Positions 18,525 to 37,450 of a DNA stretch of 64,000 nucleotides are shown here, one piece after another. Position 1 is the stretch's first letter, and the number at the start of each line of letters is the position of its first letter. Position numbers and translations under genes: made by a program. This DNA comes from Synechococcus sp. (GTDB lineage Bacteria; Cyanobacteriota; Cyanobacteriia; PCC-6307; Cyanobiaceae). The notes under the pieces were generated by a model. It worked only from the letters and a program-made list of their open reading frames with translations. It did no database searches and was not told where the DNA came from. The stretch lies in NCBI GenBank assembly GCA_047284725.1, contig JBJBEO010000001.1, forward strand, positions 760,202-824,201. Reading direction: 5' to 3'.

Positions 18525-19580
18525 ATGCGCCGCCTTTCAGCACTGCTTACAGCCTTGATGCTGCCAACCGCGCAGCCACTGCTGCTGGGTGCGGTGGCAT
18601 CAACTGCTGTTGTGGTCTCGCAAGTACCTGCCCAGGCGCAAAGCGCAGAAGCGGTCGCTCAGATTGCTCAAGCGATCACAGTGCGCATTGAAGGTGCCAC
18701 GCAGGGCTCAGGCGTCCTGGTGAAGCGTGAGGGCAATCGCTACACGGTGCTGACCGCCTGGCATGTGGTGAGCGGGCAACGAGCAGGAGAAGAGCTGGAC
18801 ATCTATACCCCTGATGGGCAGCGCCATTCGGTTGAGCCAGGCAGCATCCAACGCTTGGGGCAGGTGGACATGGCGGTGCTGAGCTTTGTCAGCTCAGGCT
18901 CTTATGAGCTGGCACGGGTTGGTGATGTCGGTAGTGTCAAAAGCGGTGGACCGATTTATGTCTCGGGCTTTCCCCTGTCGACGTCATCGGTGCCGAGTCG
19001 TATTTTTCGCTTTTTGAAAGGCGACGTGATTGCTAACGCAACAGTTGCCATTCCCAATGGATACCAGCTTCTGTATTCCAACCCGACGCTGCCTGGGATG
19101 AGCGGAGGTGCGGTGCTGAATGGTCAAGGGCAGCTTGTTGGTATTCATGGTCAGGGGGAGACCGACATCAATTTGACAGAGCAGCAGGGCGTAGCTGTCA
19201 AGACAGGCACTAATCAGGCAGTGCCGACGACGTATTACAACCAGCTGCTTTCAAATTCCGTTGTTGTTTCCTCCTCATCCCAATCAAGAGGTGCTGACAA
19301 TTATCTAGTACAAGCAAAGGTTTTATTGGGCCTTAGAGGGCGAGAGAAAGAAGTCGTTAGGCTTTCCAGCCAAGCCCTAGCCATGCAAGAAAGTGCAGAA
19401 GCATTTCTATATCGTGCTAATGCTAAAGCAGCCTTGGGAGAAAATCAAGGTGCTACTTCTGACTACGAAAAAGCAATTTTAATAAACCCGCGATACTCAG
19501 CGCCTCGTTATCGTCTAAGACTTCACAAAAGCCGCAAGCGCTTTATCCAAAAACAATGGGACGCGCTTCCTGGTTATTGA
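18525..19580 (+). CDS. Secreted trypsin-like serine protease with TPR
   Basis: Signal peptide, TAWH, DMAVL and GMSGG triad motifs; C-terminal TPR, probably truncated. Confidence 0.85.
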   Translation: MRRLSALLTALMLPTAQPLLLGAVASTAVVVSQVPAQAQSAEAVAQIAQAITVRIEGATQGSGVLVKREGNRYTVLTAWHVVSGQRAGEELDIYTPDGQRHSVEPGSIQRLGQVDMAVLSFVSSGSYELARVGDVGSVKSGGPIYVSGFPLSTSSVPSRIFRFLKGDVIANATVAIPNGYQLLYSNPTLPGMSGGAVLNGQGQLVGIHGQGETDINLTEQQGVAVKTGTNQAVPTTYYNQLLSNSVVVSSSSQSRGADNYLVQAKVLLGLRGREKEVVRLSSQALAMQESAEAFLYRANAKAALGENQGATSDYEKAILINPRYSAPRYRLRLHKSRKRFIQKQWDALPGY

Positions 19581-19653
19581 GGGTAATTCAAGAATGTTTT
19601 CGGTATTAATTTCAAAAAAGTATGAGTACTAAATTGTCCTTTGTGTTGGGTAG

Positions 19654-19746
19654 CCCGTCGTGAGGTGGATACGCCACCGCAACGCCATCGAGGCTTGGCA
19701 GGCGATGCTCAAGACCGGCTGGCAGCGATGCCCTCCACGCTGGGGC
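19654..19746 (+). pseudogene. C-terminal relic of a DUF1651-like gene
   Basis: PVVRWIRHRNAIEAWQAMLKTGWQRCPPRW matches the C-terminus of 34560-34844. Confidence 0.75.
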
Positions 19747-19893
19747 TCAAAAAAGCATCCGTAGATGAGGCTGCGGATCACGACTGACCGTGGGGGCAGT
19801 AATCAGTAAATCCTGCAGCCCCTGGGCGCCAGATACTGGTTCACCGTTGCCTAGCTCTTCGACCAGAATTGGCTGACAGAAAGCCATTGCTGC

Positions 19894-20067
19894 ATGGAAC
19901 CCATCACCTACCTGGTCATTGTCTGGGCAACCTATGGGGCCCACAGAACAACGGCAGCGATGGAGTCGATTCCCCAGTCATCACTGAAACAGTGTCAGTC
20001 CAATGTGGAACTAATCCAGGAGTGGCAGCCCAAAGCGAGCGCGCGTTGCATTGAAGGCGTCAGATAG
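19894..20067 (+). CDS. Small hypothetical protein (57 aa), not in the ORF track
   Basis: MEPITYLVIVWATYGAH...KQCQSN...ARCIEGVR*; hydrophobic N-terminus and a Cys pair. Confidence 0.55.
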   Translation: MEPITYLVIVWATYGAHRTTAAMESIPQSSLKQCQSNVELIQEWQPKASARCIEGVR

Positions 20068-20106
20068 GGAGGAGGAGGACCCACGCAGATCAGAGGAGCA
20101 TCAAGG

Positions 20107-20145
20107 CAAAAGAGAAGGCCGCCCTTCCCGATGGAAAGACGGCCT
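20107..20145 (-). terminator. Minus-strand intrinsic terminator-like hairpin (copy 1)
   Basis: AGGCCGTCTTTCC/GGAAGGGCGGCCT stem (G-U pairs only on the minus strand) followed by TCTCTTTT; homolog near 25569. Confidence 0.6.
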
Positions 20146-20196
20146 ATCTCGCTCGTTTACGCATGGTTCAACCCATCACTGCAGAAGAGAGATGAG

Positions 20197-20530
20197 GGTC
20201 GAAGCTGCTGGTTAGAGGCGCCCTGGGGCCATTTGCTCTAGGTGTTGGGTCGTTTTCTCCGAGGGCACCTGAAGCGGTGCAAGTGGAGCGTCGATTGGCG
20301 TGGCGTCCCTTTACGTGCCTACCCAAGGACCAACCCAGGTCGTTTTTGAGACTGTTGGAGCAGGGGCCAGAAAGTCAGCGTGCTTCTTGCTTTTGCTCTG
20401 GTGGAGTATCGGCCGTCATTGGCGCCTCCGATTTCGGTGACCACACTCTCCACCCGCTACGCCGAACTGCCTACCCGTTGTCTTGCTCATTGCCTTCAGA
20501 TCGGAATCCACCGACACTGAGACCGGCGTG
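20197..20530 (+). ncRNA. Candidate structured ncRNA A, copy 1 (~335 nt)
   Basis: Homologous to 25695-26032 with compensatory changes in several stems; last 93 nt identical. Confidence 0.65.
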
Positions 20531-20562
20531 GCTAAGGAAGAGGACACCCTGACGGGGAAACT

Positions 20563-20655
20563 TCAACGCCGCCAACCCCGTGGCGTTGCCGTCGTGCTCA
20601 ACCCGCACAGAATCGTCAGCTCTGCAACAGCACCGACAACAGCGGCAGGCTGCTG
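20563..20655 (-). pseudogene. 3' relic of a TerS-like gene
   Basis: Translates QPAAVVGAVAELTILCGLSTTATPRGWRR*. Confidence 0.8.
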
Positions 20656-20858
20656 CTCTGTATCCACTCAAGTAGCAAGGCAAAGCAGCAAGACGTAGCC
20701 CACTTACGAGCCGCAGAAGCTCAGCGTCAGATGGGGTTTTTTCCTGGCTTTACTTGTCAGAGCCCGACAGCGGACCCAGCACCAACGCCTGGGTGAAGAA
20801 AGGGTTGAACACCTGCGCTAGAGATGTTCCACACACCTTCGAAACAGCAGTTCGCCCG

Positions 20859-21056
20859 ATGTGGATGCGACCCCTCTTGTTGGCAATAGCACTGATCGCG
20901 ACAGGTTCTGCAGCTTTGGCTCAGACCTGCAAGTCGTTCAGCAACTGCGAGGAAGCTGTCGAGTCACTCCGATCCGGCAACTCAAGGCTTGATCGCGATA
21001 AAGACGGCGTTCCCTGTGAGTCTCTGTGCGGAAAGAACGGCGAGAACATGCGTTGA
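20859..21056 (+). CDS. Secreted Excalibur calcium-binding domain protein
   Basis: Signal peptide; CKSFSNC...LDRDKDGVPCESL. Confidence 0.8.
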   Translation: MWMRPLLLAIALIATGSAALAQTCKSFSNCEEAVESLRSGNSRLDRDKDGVPCESLCGKNGENMR

Positions 21057-21667
21057 GACGGGCTTGCTGTTTGCTGCTCTGGAGTTTCGCTGCAGTACCG
21101 GTCCATGCGGCGACTGTGGTCTCTGTCGGTGATGGGGACACCATCAGAGTTCGTGAGGGTGGCAGGGCCATCACGATTCGTTTGGCCTGCATCGACGCTC
21201 CAGAGACGTCTCAGAGTCCTTACGGCATGCGTTCTCGCTTGGCACTGAGTCGGCTGCTCCCCATCGGTTCTGAGGTGTCCTTGCGTGCACAAACAGTGGA
21301 TCGCTACGGCAGAACTGTGGCTGAGCTTCTGAACTCCCGTGGAAATATCAACCAGCGGATGGTGGGCAGTGGCCAGGCATTCGTGTATCGCAAGTACCTG
21401 GAGAAGTGCGACGCAAGGCAGTACCTCTCCCTGGAACGCCAGGCTCGAAACACGGGCGTTGGCGTGTGGTCAATCGGCCCCTCAGGCATCACCCGCCCAT
21501 GGGACCACAGGCGGTCTCGCCGGGGTGGCAAGCAGAGGACTGGTTCGTCTCGCCGATGGCGTTGTGCAGACATCGGCTCATGGCAGCAAGCACAGCGACT
21601 TCTGATCCAAGGCCATGCATACCTCGATGGTGACGGCGATGGTGAAGCGTGCGAATCGCTCCGGTGA
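21026..21667 (+). CDS. Thermonuclease with C-terminal Excalibur domain (start probably ~21053)
   Basis: DGDT, IRLACIDAPE, DRYGRTVA; C-terminal LDGDGDGEACESL. Confidence 0.88.
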   Translation: MRKERREHALRRACCLLLWSFAAVPVHAATVVSVGDGDTIRVREGGRAITIRLACIDAPETSQSPYGMRSRLALSRLLPIGSEVSLRAQTVDRYGRTVAELLNSRGNINQRMVGSGQAFVYRKYLEKCDARQYLSLERQARNTGVGVWSIGPSGITRPWDHRRSRRGGKQRTGSSRRWRCADIGSWQQAQRLLIQGHAYLDGDGDGEACESLR

Positions 21668-21815
21668 GTTGCTCTGCCATGTAGAAGGGCGGGAGTTACC
21701 CGCCCTGGCGCCAAACCCCGTCTTAAGGAAGCGGTTCTGTAGGCGTCTGTATTCGTTCTAAATGTCCGCTAAGTGCATTGCAACTGGTAGATCTACCTGT
21801 TTGCATCTCGTGATG

Positions 21816-21893
21816 ATGCAATAGAAAACCGAGCTGCCTGATCAACACCCTTTGAAGCAGGGAGAAGGGCGGCTGCTGAACGAACGACAGTAG
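21816..21893 (+). pseudogene. N-terminal relic of a DUF1651-like gene
   Basis: MQ*KTELPDQHPLKQGEGRLLNERQ* versus MERKSQHPEPHPQKNGEGWLLNEQEQ. Confidence 0.6.
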
Positions 21894-21993
21894 TGATACT
21901 GAAGATCATATGAGAATAGGGAAGCCTGGTGACTTGTGCTGATGCATGGGCCAAAGGCACCGGTAACAATAAAGTTAGCCGCTAAAAAGAGAG

Positions 21994-22233
21994 ATGCCAA
22001 TGTTTCTTGATGTTCACCCGATGAAGCCTTTCACAGCAGATCAACTCAACTCTCTTCAGAATGCGCCTGCAGACGAGTTTGGTGTTACTCATCACGATAT
22101 CCTGTACAGCGAAGAAGATGATCGCATTTACTGCATCCTGAATGCTCCCAGCGCTAAGGCAGTTCACCAGCACCATCAAAAGGCCGGAATTACCTGTGAC
22201 TGGGTGCAAGAAGTAAGCTCAACTCGCCTATGA
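21994..22233 (+). CDS. DUF4242 / SCO4226-like nickel-binding protein
   Basis: MPMFLDVH...IYCILNAPSAKAVHQHH pattern. Confidence 0.75.
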   Translation: MPMFLDVHPMKPFTADQLNSLQNAPADEFGVTHHDILYSEEDDRIYCILNAPSAKAVHQHHQKAGITCDWVQEVSSTRL

Positions 22234-22373
22234 CTCGGTCAGAACAACTAATAGATATATCAGCCATTTACTGTCTTATTATTTCTGTACTTTTTGCTCT
22301 GCTGATTTCTGATGCTGTCGCTTATCGGGCTAGGATGCTCAGTTAACTTCCTTTGCCCGAATTTGATCTACAA

Positions 22374-22400
22374 CGCCCCCGTAAGACAGGGGGCTTTTTT
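22374..22400 (+). terminator. Intrinsic terminator
   Basis: GCCCCC...GGGGGC stem followed by a T run. Confidence 0.65.
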
Positions 22401-22446
22401 GCGCATCTGGAGAATCTCGGTCAACCAGGACCTGACCCTCAGCACG

Positions 22447-22650
22447 ATCAATGTCCCCGCCTAGGGGTATCGATCCCTTATGGATCGGGAGTTGAGTCCT
22501 TTTGTGGGGCTCTTGGCGAGAGAACGAGAGCCCCATGGAGCACTTGCCCTCTTCCTTCCGGGGGCTGGTGCTCTCATGCGAGCAAACGTCCTCGTTAGGG
22601 GGTATCTGCAATGGAGATCGCTGTCCCAAGTTGGACGCAAGGCAAGGGAG
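22447..22650 (+). ncRNA. Candidate structured cis-regulatory RNA B, full copy
   Basis: Hairpin, H-type pseudoknot and further stems that covary across three copies; ends at the SD of 22657. Confidence 0.65.
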
Positions 22651-22656
22651 GTGTAA

Positions 22657-22887
22657 ATGACCCTGATCTCTAAAGGAAAAACAGACGACAGTTGCATCGG
22701 CAGGACGTGCCTGAAATGGTCTCCAGATGGGTCTCTATCAGATTTCGACAAGGACTTACTAGTGAGGCGACTTTGCGCATCTGATCCAGAGTTTTCTAAA
22801 TCAGATGCATGCCGAATCCATCAATTTGATGATCTTTCTCAGGCTCTCAACACGGCTCCCTCAATACAGATCAATGTCCCCACTTAG
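22657..22887 (+). CDS. Small hypothetical protein
   Basis: GGAGG SD; CIGRTCLKWSPDG motif. Confidence 0.7.
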   Translation: MTLISKGKTDDSCIGRTCLKWSPDGSLSDFDKDLLVRRLCASDPEFSKSDACRIHQFDDLSQALNTAPSIQINVPT

Positions 22888-23001
22888 GGGTATCGATCCC
22901 TCATGAGTCGGGAGTTGAATTCACCTGTGGGGGCTTGACGGCATAGAGGGGTCCCACAGAGCACCGGCCTCTTCGCCTAAGGGGGCTGGTGCTCTCCTGC
23001 G
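22870..23001 (+). ncRNA. RNA B copy 2 (3'-truncated)
   Basis: ATCAATGTCCCC..TAGGGGTATCGATCCC...GAGCACC...GGTGCTC, homologous to copy 1. Confidence 0.6.
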
Positions 23002-23074
23002 CAGAAATCAACCAATCCCCTTCAACGCTGATCGCAGCAACAACAGATCACCCGCAGCGATCTCAACCGGTGCA

Positions 23075-23398
23075 TCAGGTGCCGTCCACGGTGAGATCCC
23101 ACCCATCGTGACCTTGGCCCTGCCGATCGCGGTTGTAGTAACCCTCAATCCAGAATGCCAGATCGCTCTGCAGCTGTTTGGGATCGAGCAACTCCTTGCG
23201 GCTGTCGTCCAGGGCGAATTCGATCTTGAGAGTGGAGAAGAAGCTCTCCACCACTGCGTTATTCCAGCAGCAGCCCTTGGCTGACATGCTGCAGCTGATC
23301 TTGTGCTTTTCCAGCAGCTCTCTGTAGTCGGTTGTTCTGTACTGGCTTCCTTGATCGGTATGGATGAGCAGTTGGTCAGGTGTGACCTGGCTGGCCAA
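23075..23398 (-). pseudogene. IS3-family transposase fragment (integrase core)
   Basis: IHTDQGSQY, SMSAKGCCWNNAVVESFFSTLK and YYNRDR; N-terminus absent. Confidence 0.88.
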
Positions 23399-23515
23399 GG
23401 GCTCGGTTGAGGGCCTCGATCACAGGCTGGAGCCGCCGCCATCTCAAGCAGTGAGCGGGTTTTCAAGCGCGGCCGCTCTTCCTAAGGTTCGGGAGAGCGG
23501 CCTGTCTATTGCCTG

Positions 23516-24418
23516 GTGTCTCTGCGAGCTCGTTTCATTCCCATCCTGATCGGAGTGGCTGCCCTATGCGGCAGTTCGGCTGTCGCCCAGGTCCTGAAGA
23601 TGGACTACCAAAACAACCGCATGAGCGGTTCGTTGCGCAGCGGCGCCGTGGAGGTCAACGTGGAACAGCAGCGGCGGATCAACGAGTCCGGATCGAATGT
23701 GCTCCAGCCGGTGGCTGTCGTTCGTGTGAATGGCAACGAGGTCGGTCGGCTCGTTGGCGCCGAGAAATGGGGTGGCAGTCCAGCTGCGGTGGTTCAGATC
23801 GCAGAAATGGATCCGGAGAACCCTTACCCCGAAGTTCTGCTCTCTTCCTTCACCGGAGGTGCGCACTGCTGCAATCAGATCCAGGTGCTCACCAGCGATC
23901 GCAGCGGGCTGACCTGGCAAGAGGTGACACTCGGGCCTTTCGACGGGGGTGAGTCACCAGCAGAGGACCCGTTGCGGAATGGCCGCTTCCTGATCGTCGA
24001 TGTCGACAACCGGTTCCTCTATCGCTTTGCCTGCTATGCCTGCAGCACCGCACCTGCCCGCATCTGGCAGCTGCAGGGCAATGCATTCGTGGATGTGTCC
24101 CATCGGCTTGAGTTCACACCACTTCATCGCCGCAACCTGCAGCGCATGGCCGACTGGTTCCAACAGAAGAACCCTGGGTCGCCGAATGGATTTCTGGCCG
24201 GTTACGTCGCCAACAAGGCGCTGGTGGGCGAGCTGTATGACGGCTGGGATCGCATGACCCAGCGCTACGACTCCTCAGACTGGGGGTTGAAGGAGTGCAA
24301 GGGCGACCTGGATAACAACGGCAAGTGCCGCTGGGAAATCGTCTACAGCTCTTTCCCGGAAGCCTTGCGGGCCTTTCTGATCGACACTGGTTACATCAAG
24401 CCAACCGGTGAGCAGTAG
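23516..24418 (+). CDS. Secreted hypothetical protein
   Basis: Signal peptide; FTGGAHCC motif. Confidence 0.75.
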   Translation: MSLRARFIPILIGVAALCGSSAVAQVLKMDYQNNRMSGSLRSGAVEVNVEQQRRINESGSNVLQPVAVVRVNGNEVGRLVGAEKWGGSPAAVVQIAEMDPENPYPEVLLSSFTGGAHCCNQIQVLTSDRSGLTWQEVTLGPFDGGESPAEDPLRNGRFLIVDVDNRFLYRFACYACSTAPARIWQLQGNAFVDVSHRLEFTPLHRRNLQRMADWFQQKNPGSPNGFLAGYVANKALVGELYDGWDRMTQRYDSSDWGLKECKGDLDNNGKCRWEIVYSSFPEALRAFLIDTGYIKPTGEQ

Positions 24419-24793
24419 CCCTGCACAGCAACAGTCCTACGAGGACGAAGCCAGCCCTTTGATGCAAGCCGAGTGACAGTCGCAACCCCATTACGACCGT
24501 TACTTGCGTCAAGCCGGTGAGGGCTCACTGACCTGTTGATCCACAACCGCGCGCCGTCTGCACCATGTGAACTCGGACGTATCAGCTCCCCCACCAGGGG
24601 ACTTTTTTTGGGGTTTTTCGATGAAGTGGATGCTGCTTCTGGTGCTGGTGGTGATTGGCGTCGGGACCCTGATGGGGACGACGGCGCCGCCGATGCTGTG
24701 AGCTGACCTAAGCGGGCTTATGGCAGCCATCGCCACATCGGTTACGCCGCTTTTGCCGCGATGCTGTGAAATGTGCCGTTTGAAAGGCAGAGA

Positions 24794-24985
24794 ATGACCA
24801 ACAGCACTCCAAACCTCGTTGCCTGGCTGGTTGAATACAGAAAGTATTTAATCCTCGTCGCCGATGGTGCCAACGATGAGGCTGCACTTCTAAAGCAAGA
24901 AATTGAGGAGGGTCTCAATTGGGTTGAACTGACTTGGGCTGACCTTGAATTTGCAAATGATTCTGATCAGTCTCTGCGCCATTGA
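24794..24985 (+). CDS. Small acidic hypothetical protein
   Basis: Plausible helical 63-aa ORF with upstream AAGG. Confidence 0.55.
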   Translation: MTNSTPNLVAWLVEYRKYLILVADGANDEAALLKQEIEEGLNWVELTWADLEFANDSDQSLRH

Positions 24986-25694
24986 TCATCCCGTCCGTGT
25001 GTTGGCACGCCTGTGGCGTTGAATCTGGTGAAGTACGGGAATCCGATCGGCGGCTCAAAGCAATACGTCCGTAGACCGTTCAAAGATTTTGCTCAGTTAT
25101 GACAATCGATCTGTCAGGCGGCGCCCCCATCGGCTCGTTCATCTTTGAAGGCAAGCACGCACCTTTCCGTGCTCTCGCCTGTCCATTGCACGCCATAACA
25201 ACGGGCTCAGAGGAATCTCCTTTAGATTCAGCTCAAAGCCGCCGCGCCCGCCGCGCTTGAAGATTCTCTAGTTGACGTAACTCCTATTTCGTCAAGTGAG
25301 GGCTCACTGGCATTCGATGCACGCACGATTCTTGTGTCTACGTTGCGAGGGTCGTCCTCTTCAGGGACATGGGATTCGACGGAGTAGACAAGACAGACCG
25401 GTTCATCATTGCCGCCAAGCGACGTGCCGAAGCTGCATTGCATGAAACGTCTCCAAAGCTGACGGCACTTGAGAAAGCGATGTGGCTCAAGTTGAAGCGA
25501 GGTGAACGCCCCTGCAAAAACAGCAAGGCTTCCTAGGTAACTGCTCACCTGCACTTCAACAAAGTAGGAGGCCGCCCCTCCCTAGTGGAAAGACGGCCTA
25601 CCTCGCTCGTTTGTGCATAGCAATCGACCTAATCAGTGATGCTGTATCCGTGAAGCGTGGTTGCTTACCGAAGAACAGTGAACTGAAAGAAGAA

Positions 25695-26032
25695 GGTCGA
25701 AGCGACTTGGCTATGGCATCCCTGGGGCCATGACGTCCAAGTGTGTGGCGTTGTATCCCCGGGTCACCTTTCGCGCGGTGATGTGGGGTGTCGATTGACG
25801 TGGCGTACAGCTAAGTGCCTGCCAAAAGACCGTGCCTCACGGGTGGGTGGAAACTGTTGGAGCAGGGGCCAGAAAGTCAGTCTGCTTCTGCAATCTGGTT
25901 GGGTGGAGTGTCGACTGTCATCAGCGCCTCCGATCTCGATGACCACACTCTCCACCCGCTACGCCGAACTGCCTACCCGTTGTCTTGCTCATTGCCTTCA
26001 GATCGGAATCCACCGACACTGAGACCGGCGTG
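25695..26032 (+). ncRNA. Candidate structured ncRNA A, copy 2
   Basis: See 20197-20530; preceded by the homologous minus-strand hairpin beginning at 25569. Confidence 0.65.
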
Positions 26033-26271
26033 CCGAGGGTCAGCTGGAACGCAGCCGTGACAACTCACGTGACGCCCTGATCACCTGGTGTCTGTCATCT
26101 GAGAATTCGATCACGGCCTCCAAGTCAGCCATTTGCTGAGCATTTCCATATCTCGCAACTCACCAGCAGCATTAGATTCTTCCGATATCTCAGCAACTAG
26201 TATTTTCACTAGCTTCTTTCGATCAGTGCTAGGCACCGTAGATTTGTCCAAAGCCGTCTCTAGCTGAATCC

Positions 26272-26466
26272 GTGGAGCTATTCTTCGCTCTTGGTATCCC
26301 TGCCATTTTATTGATCGGGAGCGCGTTTCTCTTGGCTAATGGGAATGGTCAGTTACGGACAAAGCTTCTGCGTTTTGCAACCAGTGGACCACTATCTCAG
26401 GCATGGAATTTTGGCATCATCTTCATGGTCGTTGTCTCGATCATTGTTTACGTAGCTAGACGATGA
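26272..26466 (+). CDS. Small two-TM membrane protein
   Basis: Two hydrophobic segments. Confidence 0.5.
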   Translation: MELFFALGIPAILLIGSAFLLANGNGQLRTKLLRFATSGPLSQAWNFGIIFMVVVSIIVYVARR

Positions 26467-26536
26467 TGCTGCTGAATTAGGTCTTGACGTTTTGCACTCT
26501 GTTCGGCATAAATGGCATAACGATATCGGCTGTTCA

Positions 26537-26905
26537 ATGCTTACTGGTACTGAACTCTTGGCTAAGGTCAAAGACCTTGGTGACGTCTCCAAATCCGACT
26601 TGGCTACTGCCTGTGGCTACGTGTCGGACAAAAAGGATGGTGGCCAGAGGGTCAACTTCACAGCCTTTTATGAGGCCCTCCTGAACGCCAAAGGAATTGA
26701 CCTTGGATCTGGTGGTGGTGCCGGTCTTGGCAAAGGCGGAAGAAAGCTGTCCTACACAGCCAAGGTGCAGGGAAACGGGAATCTGCTGATCGGCAAGGCG
26801 TATACCGCAATGCTGGATCTGACTCCCGGTGACGAATTCGATATCAAACTCGGCAAGAAGGCAATCCGTCTGATCCCTGTTGGGGGTACTGAAGAGGAGG
26901 AGTGA
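26537..26905 (+). CDS. AbrB-like transcriptional regulator (cyanobacterial type)
   Basis: MLTGTELLAKVK...ACGY...NFTAFYEALL...VQGNGNLLIGKAYT. Confidence 0.9.
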   Translation: MLTGTELLAKVKDLGDVSKSDLATACGYVSDKKDGGQRVNFTAFYEALLNAKGIDLGSGGGAGLGKGGRKLSYTAKVQGNGNLLIGKAYTAMLDLTPGDEFDIKLGKKAIRLIPVGGTEEEE

Positions 26906-27044
26906 CTTCCAAAGTCACCTTTCATCCCTGTTGGTGGCGCTGACTGAGACTCAGGAGGCCAACCGAACCTTTCCTGACGGTTCTCCTACTCCTCAATTCG
27001 ATTCGTCTGATCGAAGGTGGATGAGTCGAGTCATGAGGGCACAT

Positions 27045-37388: not shown

Positions 37389-37390
37389 CG

Positions 37391-37450
37391 ACGTTCACCT
37401 CCTCGTCGGGGAGGCGCAGTTCGATTCAGGCCATGGAACGGGGACCTGAA
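37391..37450 (+). ncRNA. Glutamine-II (downstream-peptide) riboswitch
   Basis: CGTTCACCTC...GAGGCGCAG...TCAGGCCATGGAACGGGGACCTGA, with CGTTC/GAACG and TCAGG/CCTGA pairings, upstream of a DUF4278 ORF. Confidence 0.85.

Follow-up and report, generated by a model that had tools for sequence, protein, structure and literature searches.

Two homologous segments of a Synechococcus genome are very probably paralogous genes for the large structured RNA Yfr103

The window analyzed here is a 64,000-nucleotide stretch of a Synechococcus sp. genome (assembly GCA_047284725.1, contig JBJBEO010000001.1, positions 760,202 to 824,201, forward strand). It contains two homologous segments, copy A (20197-20530) and copy B (25695-26032), which share 78.7% identity over 352 nt by blastn (positions are those of the window unless given as genome positions). 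The original prediction had proposed that they are two copies of a large structured noncoding RNA (ncRNA). Both the homology and the ncRNA assignment are borne out, the latter by covariation and by the absence of a coding signal. The repeats are real, but their extent was drawn too short: homology starts ~80 nt further upstream, at a palindrome. Matching properties (copy number, abundance, structure, upstream palindrome, and taxonomic spread) indicate that copies A and B are very probably two of seven paralogous genes in this genome for Yfr103, an RNA described by Hou et al. 2016 (PMC5069720).

Each copy is a defined gene unit. It opens with a GC-rich palindrome of 30 nt, which is predicted to overlap the -35 region, and continues with a short conserved block that may hold the promoter. 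A predicted RNA of ~300 nt comes next, in which an optional 5′ stem-loop would be followed by a multihelix core, a GGUGGAG..CCUCC hairpin, and a terminal hairpin; the fourth and last part is a conserved tail of ~33 nt. The core is predicted to be closed by GAAGC/GCTTC and to expose the invariant unpaired blocks CCUGGGGCC and ACUGUUGGAGCAGGGGCC. Units of this genome are 417 to 465 nt long. Their borders are sharp, with ~12 purine-rich nucleotides before the palindrome at the 5′ end and ..GGCGTGCC at the 3′ end, and the flanks beyond are unrelated. The features of the two copies are as follows.

20116..20145, no strand assigned: copy A imperfect palindrome (AGGCCG..CGGCCT), 30 nt, kept in 34 of 34 unique marine copies
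20146..20173, plus strand: copy A conserved block CTCGCTCGTT..GCATGGTTCAACC, near-invariant in 34 marine copies; putative core promoter, a role taken from the published offset
20174..20497, plus strand: copy A predicted Yfr103 RNA; start placed at palindrome end + 29, 3′ end at ~20465-20497, with 20497 lying after CATTGCC
20201..20386, plus strand: copy A core, from GAAGC (20201-20205) to GCTTC (20382-20386), as drawn from the covariation structure; it holds CCTGGGGCC at 20222, the hairpin GCACC/GGTGC at 20265/20276, a variable domain that shows covariation, and, at 20351, the 12-mer ACTGTTGGAGCA
20400..20429, plus strand: copy A hairpin GGTGGAG..CCTCC past the core (helix 11, covarying pairs)
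20438..20530, plus strand: copy A 93-nt run shared exactly with copy B, comprising the 3′ part of the RNA and the conserved tail, with terminus GGCGTG
25569..25599, no strand assigned: copy B imperfect palindrome, 31 nt
25600..25627, plus strand: copy B conserved block, promoter-like, with 2 nt inserted compared with copy A
25628..25999, plus strand: copy B predicted Yfr103 RNA, with an additional ~48-nt 5′ stem-loop (~25630-25690)
25699..25888, plus strand: copy B core, GAAGC at 25699 and GCTTC at 25884, with TCACC/GGTGA at 25764/25777 and ACTGTTGGAGCA at 25853
25902..25931, plus strand: copy B hairpin GGTGGAG..CCTCC, supported by covariation
25940..26032, plus strand: copy B 93-nt run shared exactly with copy A

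Compensatory pairing in these copies is genuine. The RNAalifold structure for 58 homologs (alignment A2) has 66 pairs (89.3% paired), 22 of which change on both sides. Double changes occupied 179 cells, compared with 62.9 ± 9.4 after shuffling (0 of 500 shuffles reached the observed count) and 38 to 68 when the partner was slid, and the covariation score was 0.170 versus 0.04 to 0.07. A covariance model confined to the core (R2; 190 positions, 48 pairs) yielded an alignment of 83 matches, 77 of them distinct, which was fitted to the model and so leans toward the structure; in it, 93.4% of cells pair, 24 of the 48 pairs change on both sides, and double changes number 249 cells, compared with 74.4 ± 9.4 (shuffled) and 26 to 62 (slid). 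Support is strongest for helices 5 and 8 in the variable domain, for the helix that closes the core, and for the hairpin just past the core.

Individual stems fared differently. The exchange of GCACC/GGTGC for TCACC/GGTGA is real, with a UA variant in only 2 of 77 sequences (pair 86-140), and so is that of CTCC/GGAG for CCCC/GGGG, which reads ACCC/GGGT in distant relatives. Two stems had been called invariant on the strength of copies A and B; GAAGC/GCTTC turns into GGAGC/GCTCC in 12 of 77 sequences (pair 4-311), and GGTGGAG/CTCCACC is not preserved in other subfamilies (e.g., L005 and L012). The stem GTCATT/GGTGAC, also put forward as compensatory, shows one-sided change only and competes with the local hairpin GGTGGAG..CCTCC, which does covary among the 58 homologs (pair 310-318, CG:33 UA:24; pair 311-317, GC:23 AU:14). 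Near-invariant G·U pairs in the 77 sequences (35-45, GU:69; 166-231, GU:61; 277-282, UG:77) support the plus strand, in agreement with the orientation originally read from G-U pairs. The blocks CCTGGGGCC and ACTGTTGGAGCA lie outside covariation testing because they never vary, and the 3′ part is less conserved than the core across the family.

The absence of a conserved long reading frame also holds, and codon-position, indel, and frame tests reveal no coding signal. Substitutions between copies A and B are spread evenly over the three codon positions (26/26/28), 288 of 304 indel runs relative to copy A are not multiples of three, and at most 3 of 58 homologs are open in any frame.

To assess expression, metatranscriptome contigs from four runs of two studies were mapped on window positions 19000-27000; each contig carries one depth and no strand, and the depths include summed contigs from other strains with ≥95% identity. 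Depth in bins over the copies was 942 to 1985 in runs X1 and X2 and 90,578 to 463,222 in runs X3 and X6, whereas bins without the element had depths of 0 to 54; in these contigs, both copies stand at 10^2 to 10^5 times the depth of neighboring genes. On copy A, contigs spanning 20146-20368 and 20351-20425 had depths of 1197 to 1331 versus 0 to 6 on neighboring genes, and in two runs one contig terminates with adapter sequence at position 20425. Bin 20335-20601 of run X1 contains ~160,000 depth × nt beyond the contigs listed. The copy B bin 25675-25941 reached depths of 827 to 463,222 in the four runs. Runs X1 and X2 carry the label "probably DNA," and the 200- to 400-fold excess is beyond what a seven-copy DNA repeat explains in them. 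Such depths in the contigs of the four runs agree with the description of Yfr103 as the most abundant non-ribosomal transcript.

Coverage also bears on a possible cis-acting role, as leader or riboswitch for a downstream gene, a reading that we find barely credible. Its one point of support is that a terminal GTG or ATG opens a lipoprotein-like open reading frame (ORF) in 5 of 34 marine copies; the other 29 lack such a start, downstream genes are unrelated and lie in either orientation, and on the downstream side of copy B depth drops by a factor of 100 to 1000 or more, with neighboring bins at 0.4 to 4.4.

The passages of Hou et al. 2016 (PMC5069720) that deal with Yfr103 describe seven paralogs of 290 to 328 nt in Synechococcus CC9605, jointly accounting for 55.2% of reads, and place the RNA as the top-abundance transcript in environmental metatranscriptomes, with more than half of the non-ribosomal reads from environmental Synechococcus. 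They further describe a strongly conserved predicted secondary structure, homologs in nine other marine Synechococcus strains (WH7803 listed) and five low-light Prochlorococcus strains, and a conserved imperfect palindrome at -29 to -58 from the mapped start (30 positions), proposed to be a transcription factor site. In CC9605, ~2.9 kb separates two copies that share a strand (PMC5069720, Table_S2), a spacing that resembles the clustering of copies in the present genome. The RNA studied here agrees with this account in its seven copies in marine Synechococcus, abundance, structure, upstream palindrome, and occurrence, WH7803 included, and differs from it in no defining property. The original observation is therefore real but very probably not novel: the RNA matches one already described, and the families that had been named for exclusion were Yfr8/Yfr9.

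Several points weigh against this assignment or its details. Identity was set by the description in Hou et al. 2016, as opposed to alignment with a published Yfr103 sequence. The predicted length of copy B, ~372 nt, exceeds the published 290 to 328 nt. Contigs in three runs begin at 20146/20147, straight after the palindrome, and not at the start predicted from the published offset near 20174. Lastly, low-GC relatives carry at the palindrome's place a hairpin set between an A run and a T run, and the hairpin sequence is unrelated between lineages. A GC-rich hairpin of this kind, just upstream of the RNA, was seen in loci L191-L201, L204, and L207. The additional ~48-nt 5′ stem-loop of copy B also occurs in some other copies (e.g., L003, L026, and L027), and its presence or absence may correspond to two published size classes of Yfr103. 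The contig overhang at the 5′ end of copy A could arise by rare read-through up to the stable hairpin.

Applying the published offset, transcription would start near 20174 in copy A and near 25628 in copy B. A start at 20174 would center the palindrome at about -43.5, overlapping the -35 region; no sigma-70 consensus was found in the conserved promoter-like block. Contigs cover at least 280 nt of copy A (20146-20425), and the lengths deduced from the predicted ends are ~291 to 324 nt for copy A and ~372 nt for copy B. The 3′ end of copy A probably lies between ~20465 and ~20497, a placement guided by the published 290 to 328 nt and by a GCAAT..ATTGC hairpin with a T-rich tail in relatives. All 14 low-GC or distant relatives compared have this hairpin, 128 to 135 nt past the core 12-mer, and in 7 of them at least 4 of the next 8 nt are T; in copies A and B its stem is degenerate. 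Zero cover in bin 25942-26208 was considered as a sign of the copy B 3′ end and dropped, as the identical 93 nt may place such contigs on copy A only.

Across the whole element, RNAalifold also draws a helix in which CTCGCTCGTT pairs with AACGGCGTG. Both strands are nearly invariant with zero double changes, and the 5′ strand probably lies upstream of the transcription start. The inner stem of the palindrome shows paired changes among marine copies, and the copy A palindrome scores as terminator-like on the minus strand. The positionally matching hairpin of low-GC relatives, with its lineage-specific sequence, would fit a structural element (terminator, insulator, or cruciform) at least as well as a transcription factor site.

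This 2.58-Mb genome, assembled as one contig, carries seven full copies and one partial copy (L008, genome 1466844-1467009) that is reduced to the palindrome, the promoter block, and ~75 nt at the start of the core. Of an initial set of 40 loci, 38 matched a profile of the seven copies over nearly its whole length (≥380 of 429 positions), leaving 34 unique copies. Copies cluster closely, as at 780301 and 785761 in this genome and at four sites within 25 kb in G015. In one locus (L170; G016:C1:2266537-2269729), three near-identical units repeat head to tail every 450 nt, with CGACGAG|GAGAGGCC at the junctions, each without the last ~15 nt of the usual tail.

The original prediction had noted that the last 93 nt of copies A and B are identical and had taken them for a sequence-constrained functional core. 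The identity is exact (20438-20530 and 25940-26032 form the longest identical run), but its interpretation does not hold up against a third copy. Between copy B and the 371-kb copy (L003, genome 371204-371712), 40-column windows are identical at 40/40 over the leader and most of the core, with one window at 38/40, and the 3′ parts differ; between copies A and B, identity is 55 to 70% in the core and reaches 38 to 40 of 40 only in the 3′ part; and copy A and L003 have ~150 nt of downstream flank in common. Such a mosaic argues for recombination or gene conversion between paralogs rather than constraint, and on the evidence of these alignments, the 93 identical nucleotides are better explained by a recent event of this type.

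The same mosaic, the close clustering of copies, the three tandem 450-nt units in one genome, and an IS3-type integrase fragment between copies A and B could be taken to mean that the unit serves mainly mobility or recombination, as a MITE-like element or a cassette-flanking repeat that shapes genomic islands, with transcription secondary. We consider this very unlikely. Target site duplication was not detected (the longest shared flank word averaged 4.53 for 34 copies versus 4.52 for controls), the complementarity of the 5′ and 3′ termini lacks two-sided changes, and no linked transposase family was found near the units. Moreover, streamlined genomes keep 1 or 2 copies in conserved settings, and the extreme RNA level together with covariation points to selection on the RNA. 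An origin as a MITE-like element or insertion sequence was accordingly rejected for want of a duplication signal, paired end changes, and a linked transposase.

The R2 model was searched against 150 sampled genomes of the family and detected the RNA in 134 of them, with ~330 matches in all; 61 of 64 genera are represented. When only genomes of ≥90% completeness are considered, the count is 87 of 98, including this one. Within the genus, 23 of 24 genomes have the RNA, with 2 to 13 matches each (matches are not copy numbers). The spread includes freshwater and Cyanobium-like lineages, and a full copy is present in the record of Synechococcus WH7803 (L064), a strain on the list of Hou et al. 2016 (PMC5069720). 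Complete low-GC (31 to 40%) genomes of 1.7 to 2.0 Mb have 1 or 2 copies; we infer that these are Prochlorococcus, which fits the low-light Prochlorococcus strains listed. In one genus (g35), 3 of 4 complete genomes of ~1.6 to 1.7 Mb gave no match to the RNA, nor did 5 of 5 in another (g25). Scanning contigs with a 15-mer pattern, which is unspecific, returned at least 120 stretches, and 30 loci among the matches listed hold the element at an E value of ≤0.001; CC9605 was not among the matches listed. RNA-bearing contigs also turned up in bins labeled Bordetella parapertussis, Klebsiella, Salipiger bermudensis, and Acidovorax caeni (L048, L058, L121, L146, and L147), and these five are probably mis-binned cyanobacterial contigs. 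Phage origin was rejected: 50,697 phage records gave no match, and viral contigs lacked any exact 20-mer of the core.

The RNA was compared with known families. Rfam 15 had nothing at gathering threshold over window positions 19900-26400 and no match to the RNA even at E values up to 10; the sole match at E ≤ 10 touching the units is ctRNA_p42d at 20106-20149 on the minus strand, over the copy A palindrome, at 18.1 bits against a cutoff of 50. The RNA is not 6S, RNase P, or signal recognition particle (SRP) RNA, all three of which sit elsewhere in the genome. It resembles 6S RNA (RF00013) in being an abundant stable RNA that might act by protein sequestration, but the genuine 6S RNA lies at genome 1280165-1280348 (104.5 bits), and the present fold is a multihelix junction, not a long bulged duplex. 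OLE, ROOL, GOLLD, and raiA are large structured bacterial RNAs whose functions are unknown or were lately found. Like them, the present RNA is long for a bacterial ncRNA, has many covarying helices and invariant junction nucleotides, and forms a stand-alone gene; unlike them, it is limited to one cyanobacterial family, far more abundant, and multicopy, and their Rfam models gave no match. Yfr8/Yfr9 and other island-encoded Yfr RNAs of Prochlorococcus are picocyanobacterial ncRNAs, some of them in genomic islands. Compared by description only, the present RNA is much larger than typical Yfr small RNAs, and its absence from the search results for the three g35 genomes is a further difference.

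Yfr103 is a stand-alone ncRNA gene. No recurrent neighboring protein family was found around the copies, including those of low-GC relatives, some of which (e.g., L192 and L207) have the RNA in intergenic regions free of called ORFs (≥80 amino acids [aa]). An IS3-type integrase core fragment (rve_3, rve; 107 aa) lies between copies A and B at 23075-23398 on the minus strand. Downstream of copy A, at 20754-21667 on the plus strand, two overlapping ORFs encode a 100-aa protein with an Excalibur calcium-binding domain and a 213-aa staphylococcal nuclease homolog that also ends in an Excalibur domain. Farther along the window, at 37389-37450 on the plus strand, is a glutamine-II riboswitch aptamer (69 bits versus a gathering score of 33). 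In five related loci, the ORFs opened by the unit-terminal GTG or ATG (L012, L016, L017, L019, and L022) are 105 to 160 aa long with a lipoprotein-like signal (..LLGACTGG..), and their true start may be a Met a few codons in.

What Yfr103 does is termed enigmatic in Hou et al. 2016 (PMC5069720), in the passages on this RNA, and a full-text literature search found no later work on its function. Our best guess, held tentatively, is a trans-acting role as a protein-binding scaffold or a sequestering RNA, in which the invariant loops would serve as contact sites and multiple gene copies would provide dosage. We favor this reading because of the size of the RNA, its covarying helices and invariant unpaired blocks, its extreme abundance, its amplification, and its family-wide retention. 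It is weakened by the comparison of neighbors, in which no gene for a partner protein linked to the RNA was found.

A fold of ~300 nt with many helices is unusual for base-pairing small RNAs. Action by base pairing, in which invariant single-stranded blocks (e.g., ACUGUUGGAGCA) would capture mRNAs or titrate small RNAs, is unlikely in our estimation, even though the 12-nt block shows no variation among all 58 aligned homologs and a sponge role would suit high abundance. The exact complement of the 12-mer occurs at one genome site outside the seven copies, versus ~0.3 expected by chance, and allowing one mismatch adds only 15 sites with both strands counted, so that the target search is at chance level; the block itself sits in a small invariant hairpin (helix 10 of the model). 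A catalytic function, as a ribozyme or within a ribonucleoprotein, is less likely still. The complex junction, invariant unpaired nucleotides, covarying helices, and retention in 61 of 64 genera would be in keeping with catalysis, but Rfam ribozyme families gave no match even at E values up to 10, and the tandem L170 copies have no recognizable unit-length processing sites.

Going beyond the scaffold or sequestering role, a broader and more speculative picture, possible but doubtful, is that of a family-wide RNA with a ribonucleoprotein or catalytic role, whose promoter would be gated by a hairpin conserved in position and variable in sequence, and whose marine copies would double as portable homology that reshuffles island cassettes. 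The island-reshuffling part of this idea is drawn from the mosaic of copies A, B, and L003 and from the tandem array.

Because Yfr103 has no Rfam family, genome annotation misses it, and sequence scans can be expected to find it anew each time. Without revealing its function, the present analysis adds to the description of Yfr103 a covariation-supported core (77 sequences), near family-wide presence, the full anatomy of the gene unit, an upstream hairpin that is kept in position while its sequence changes, and signs of recombination between paralogs.

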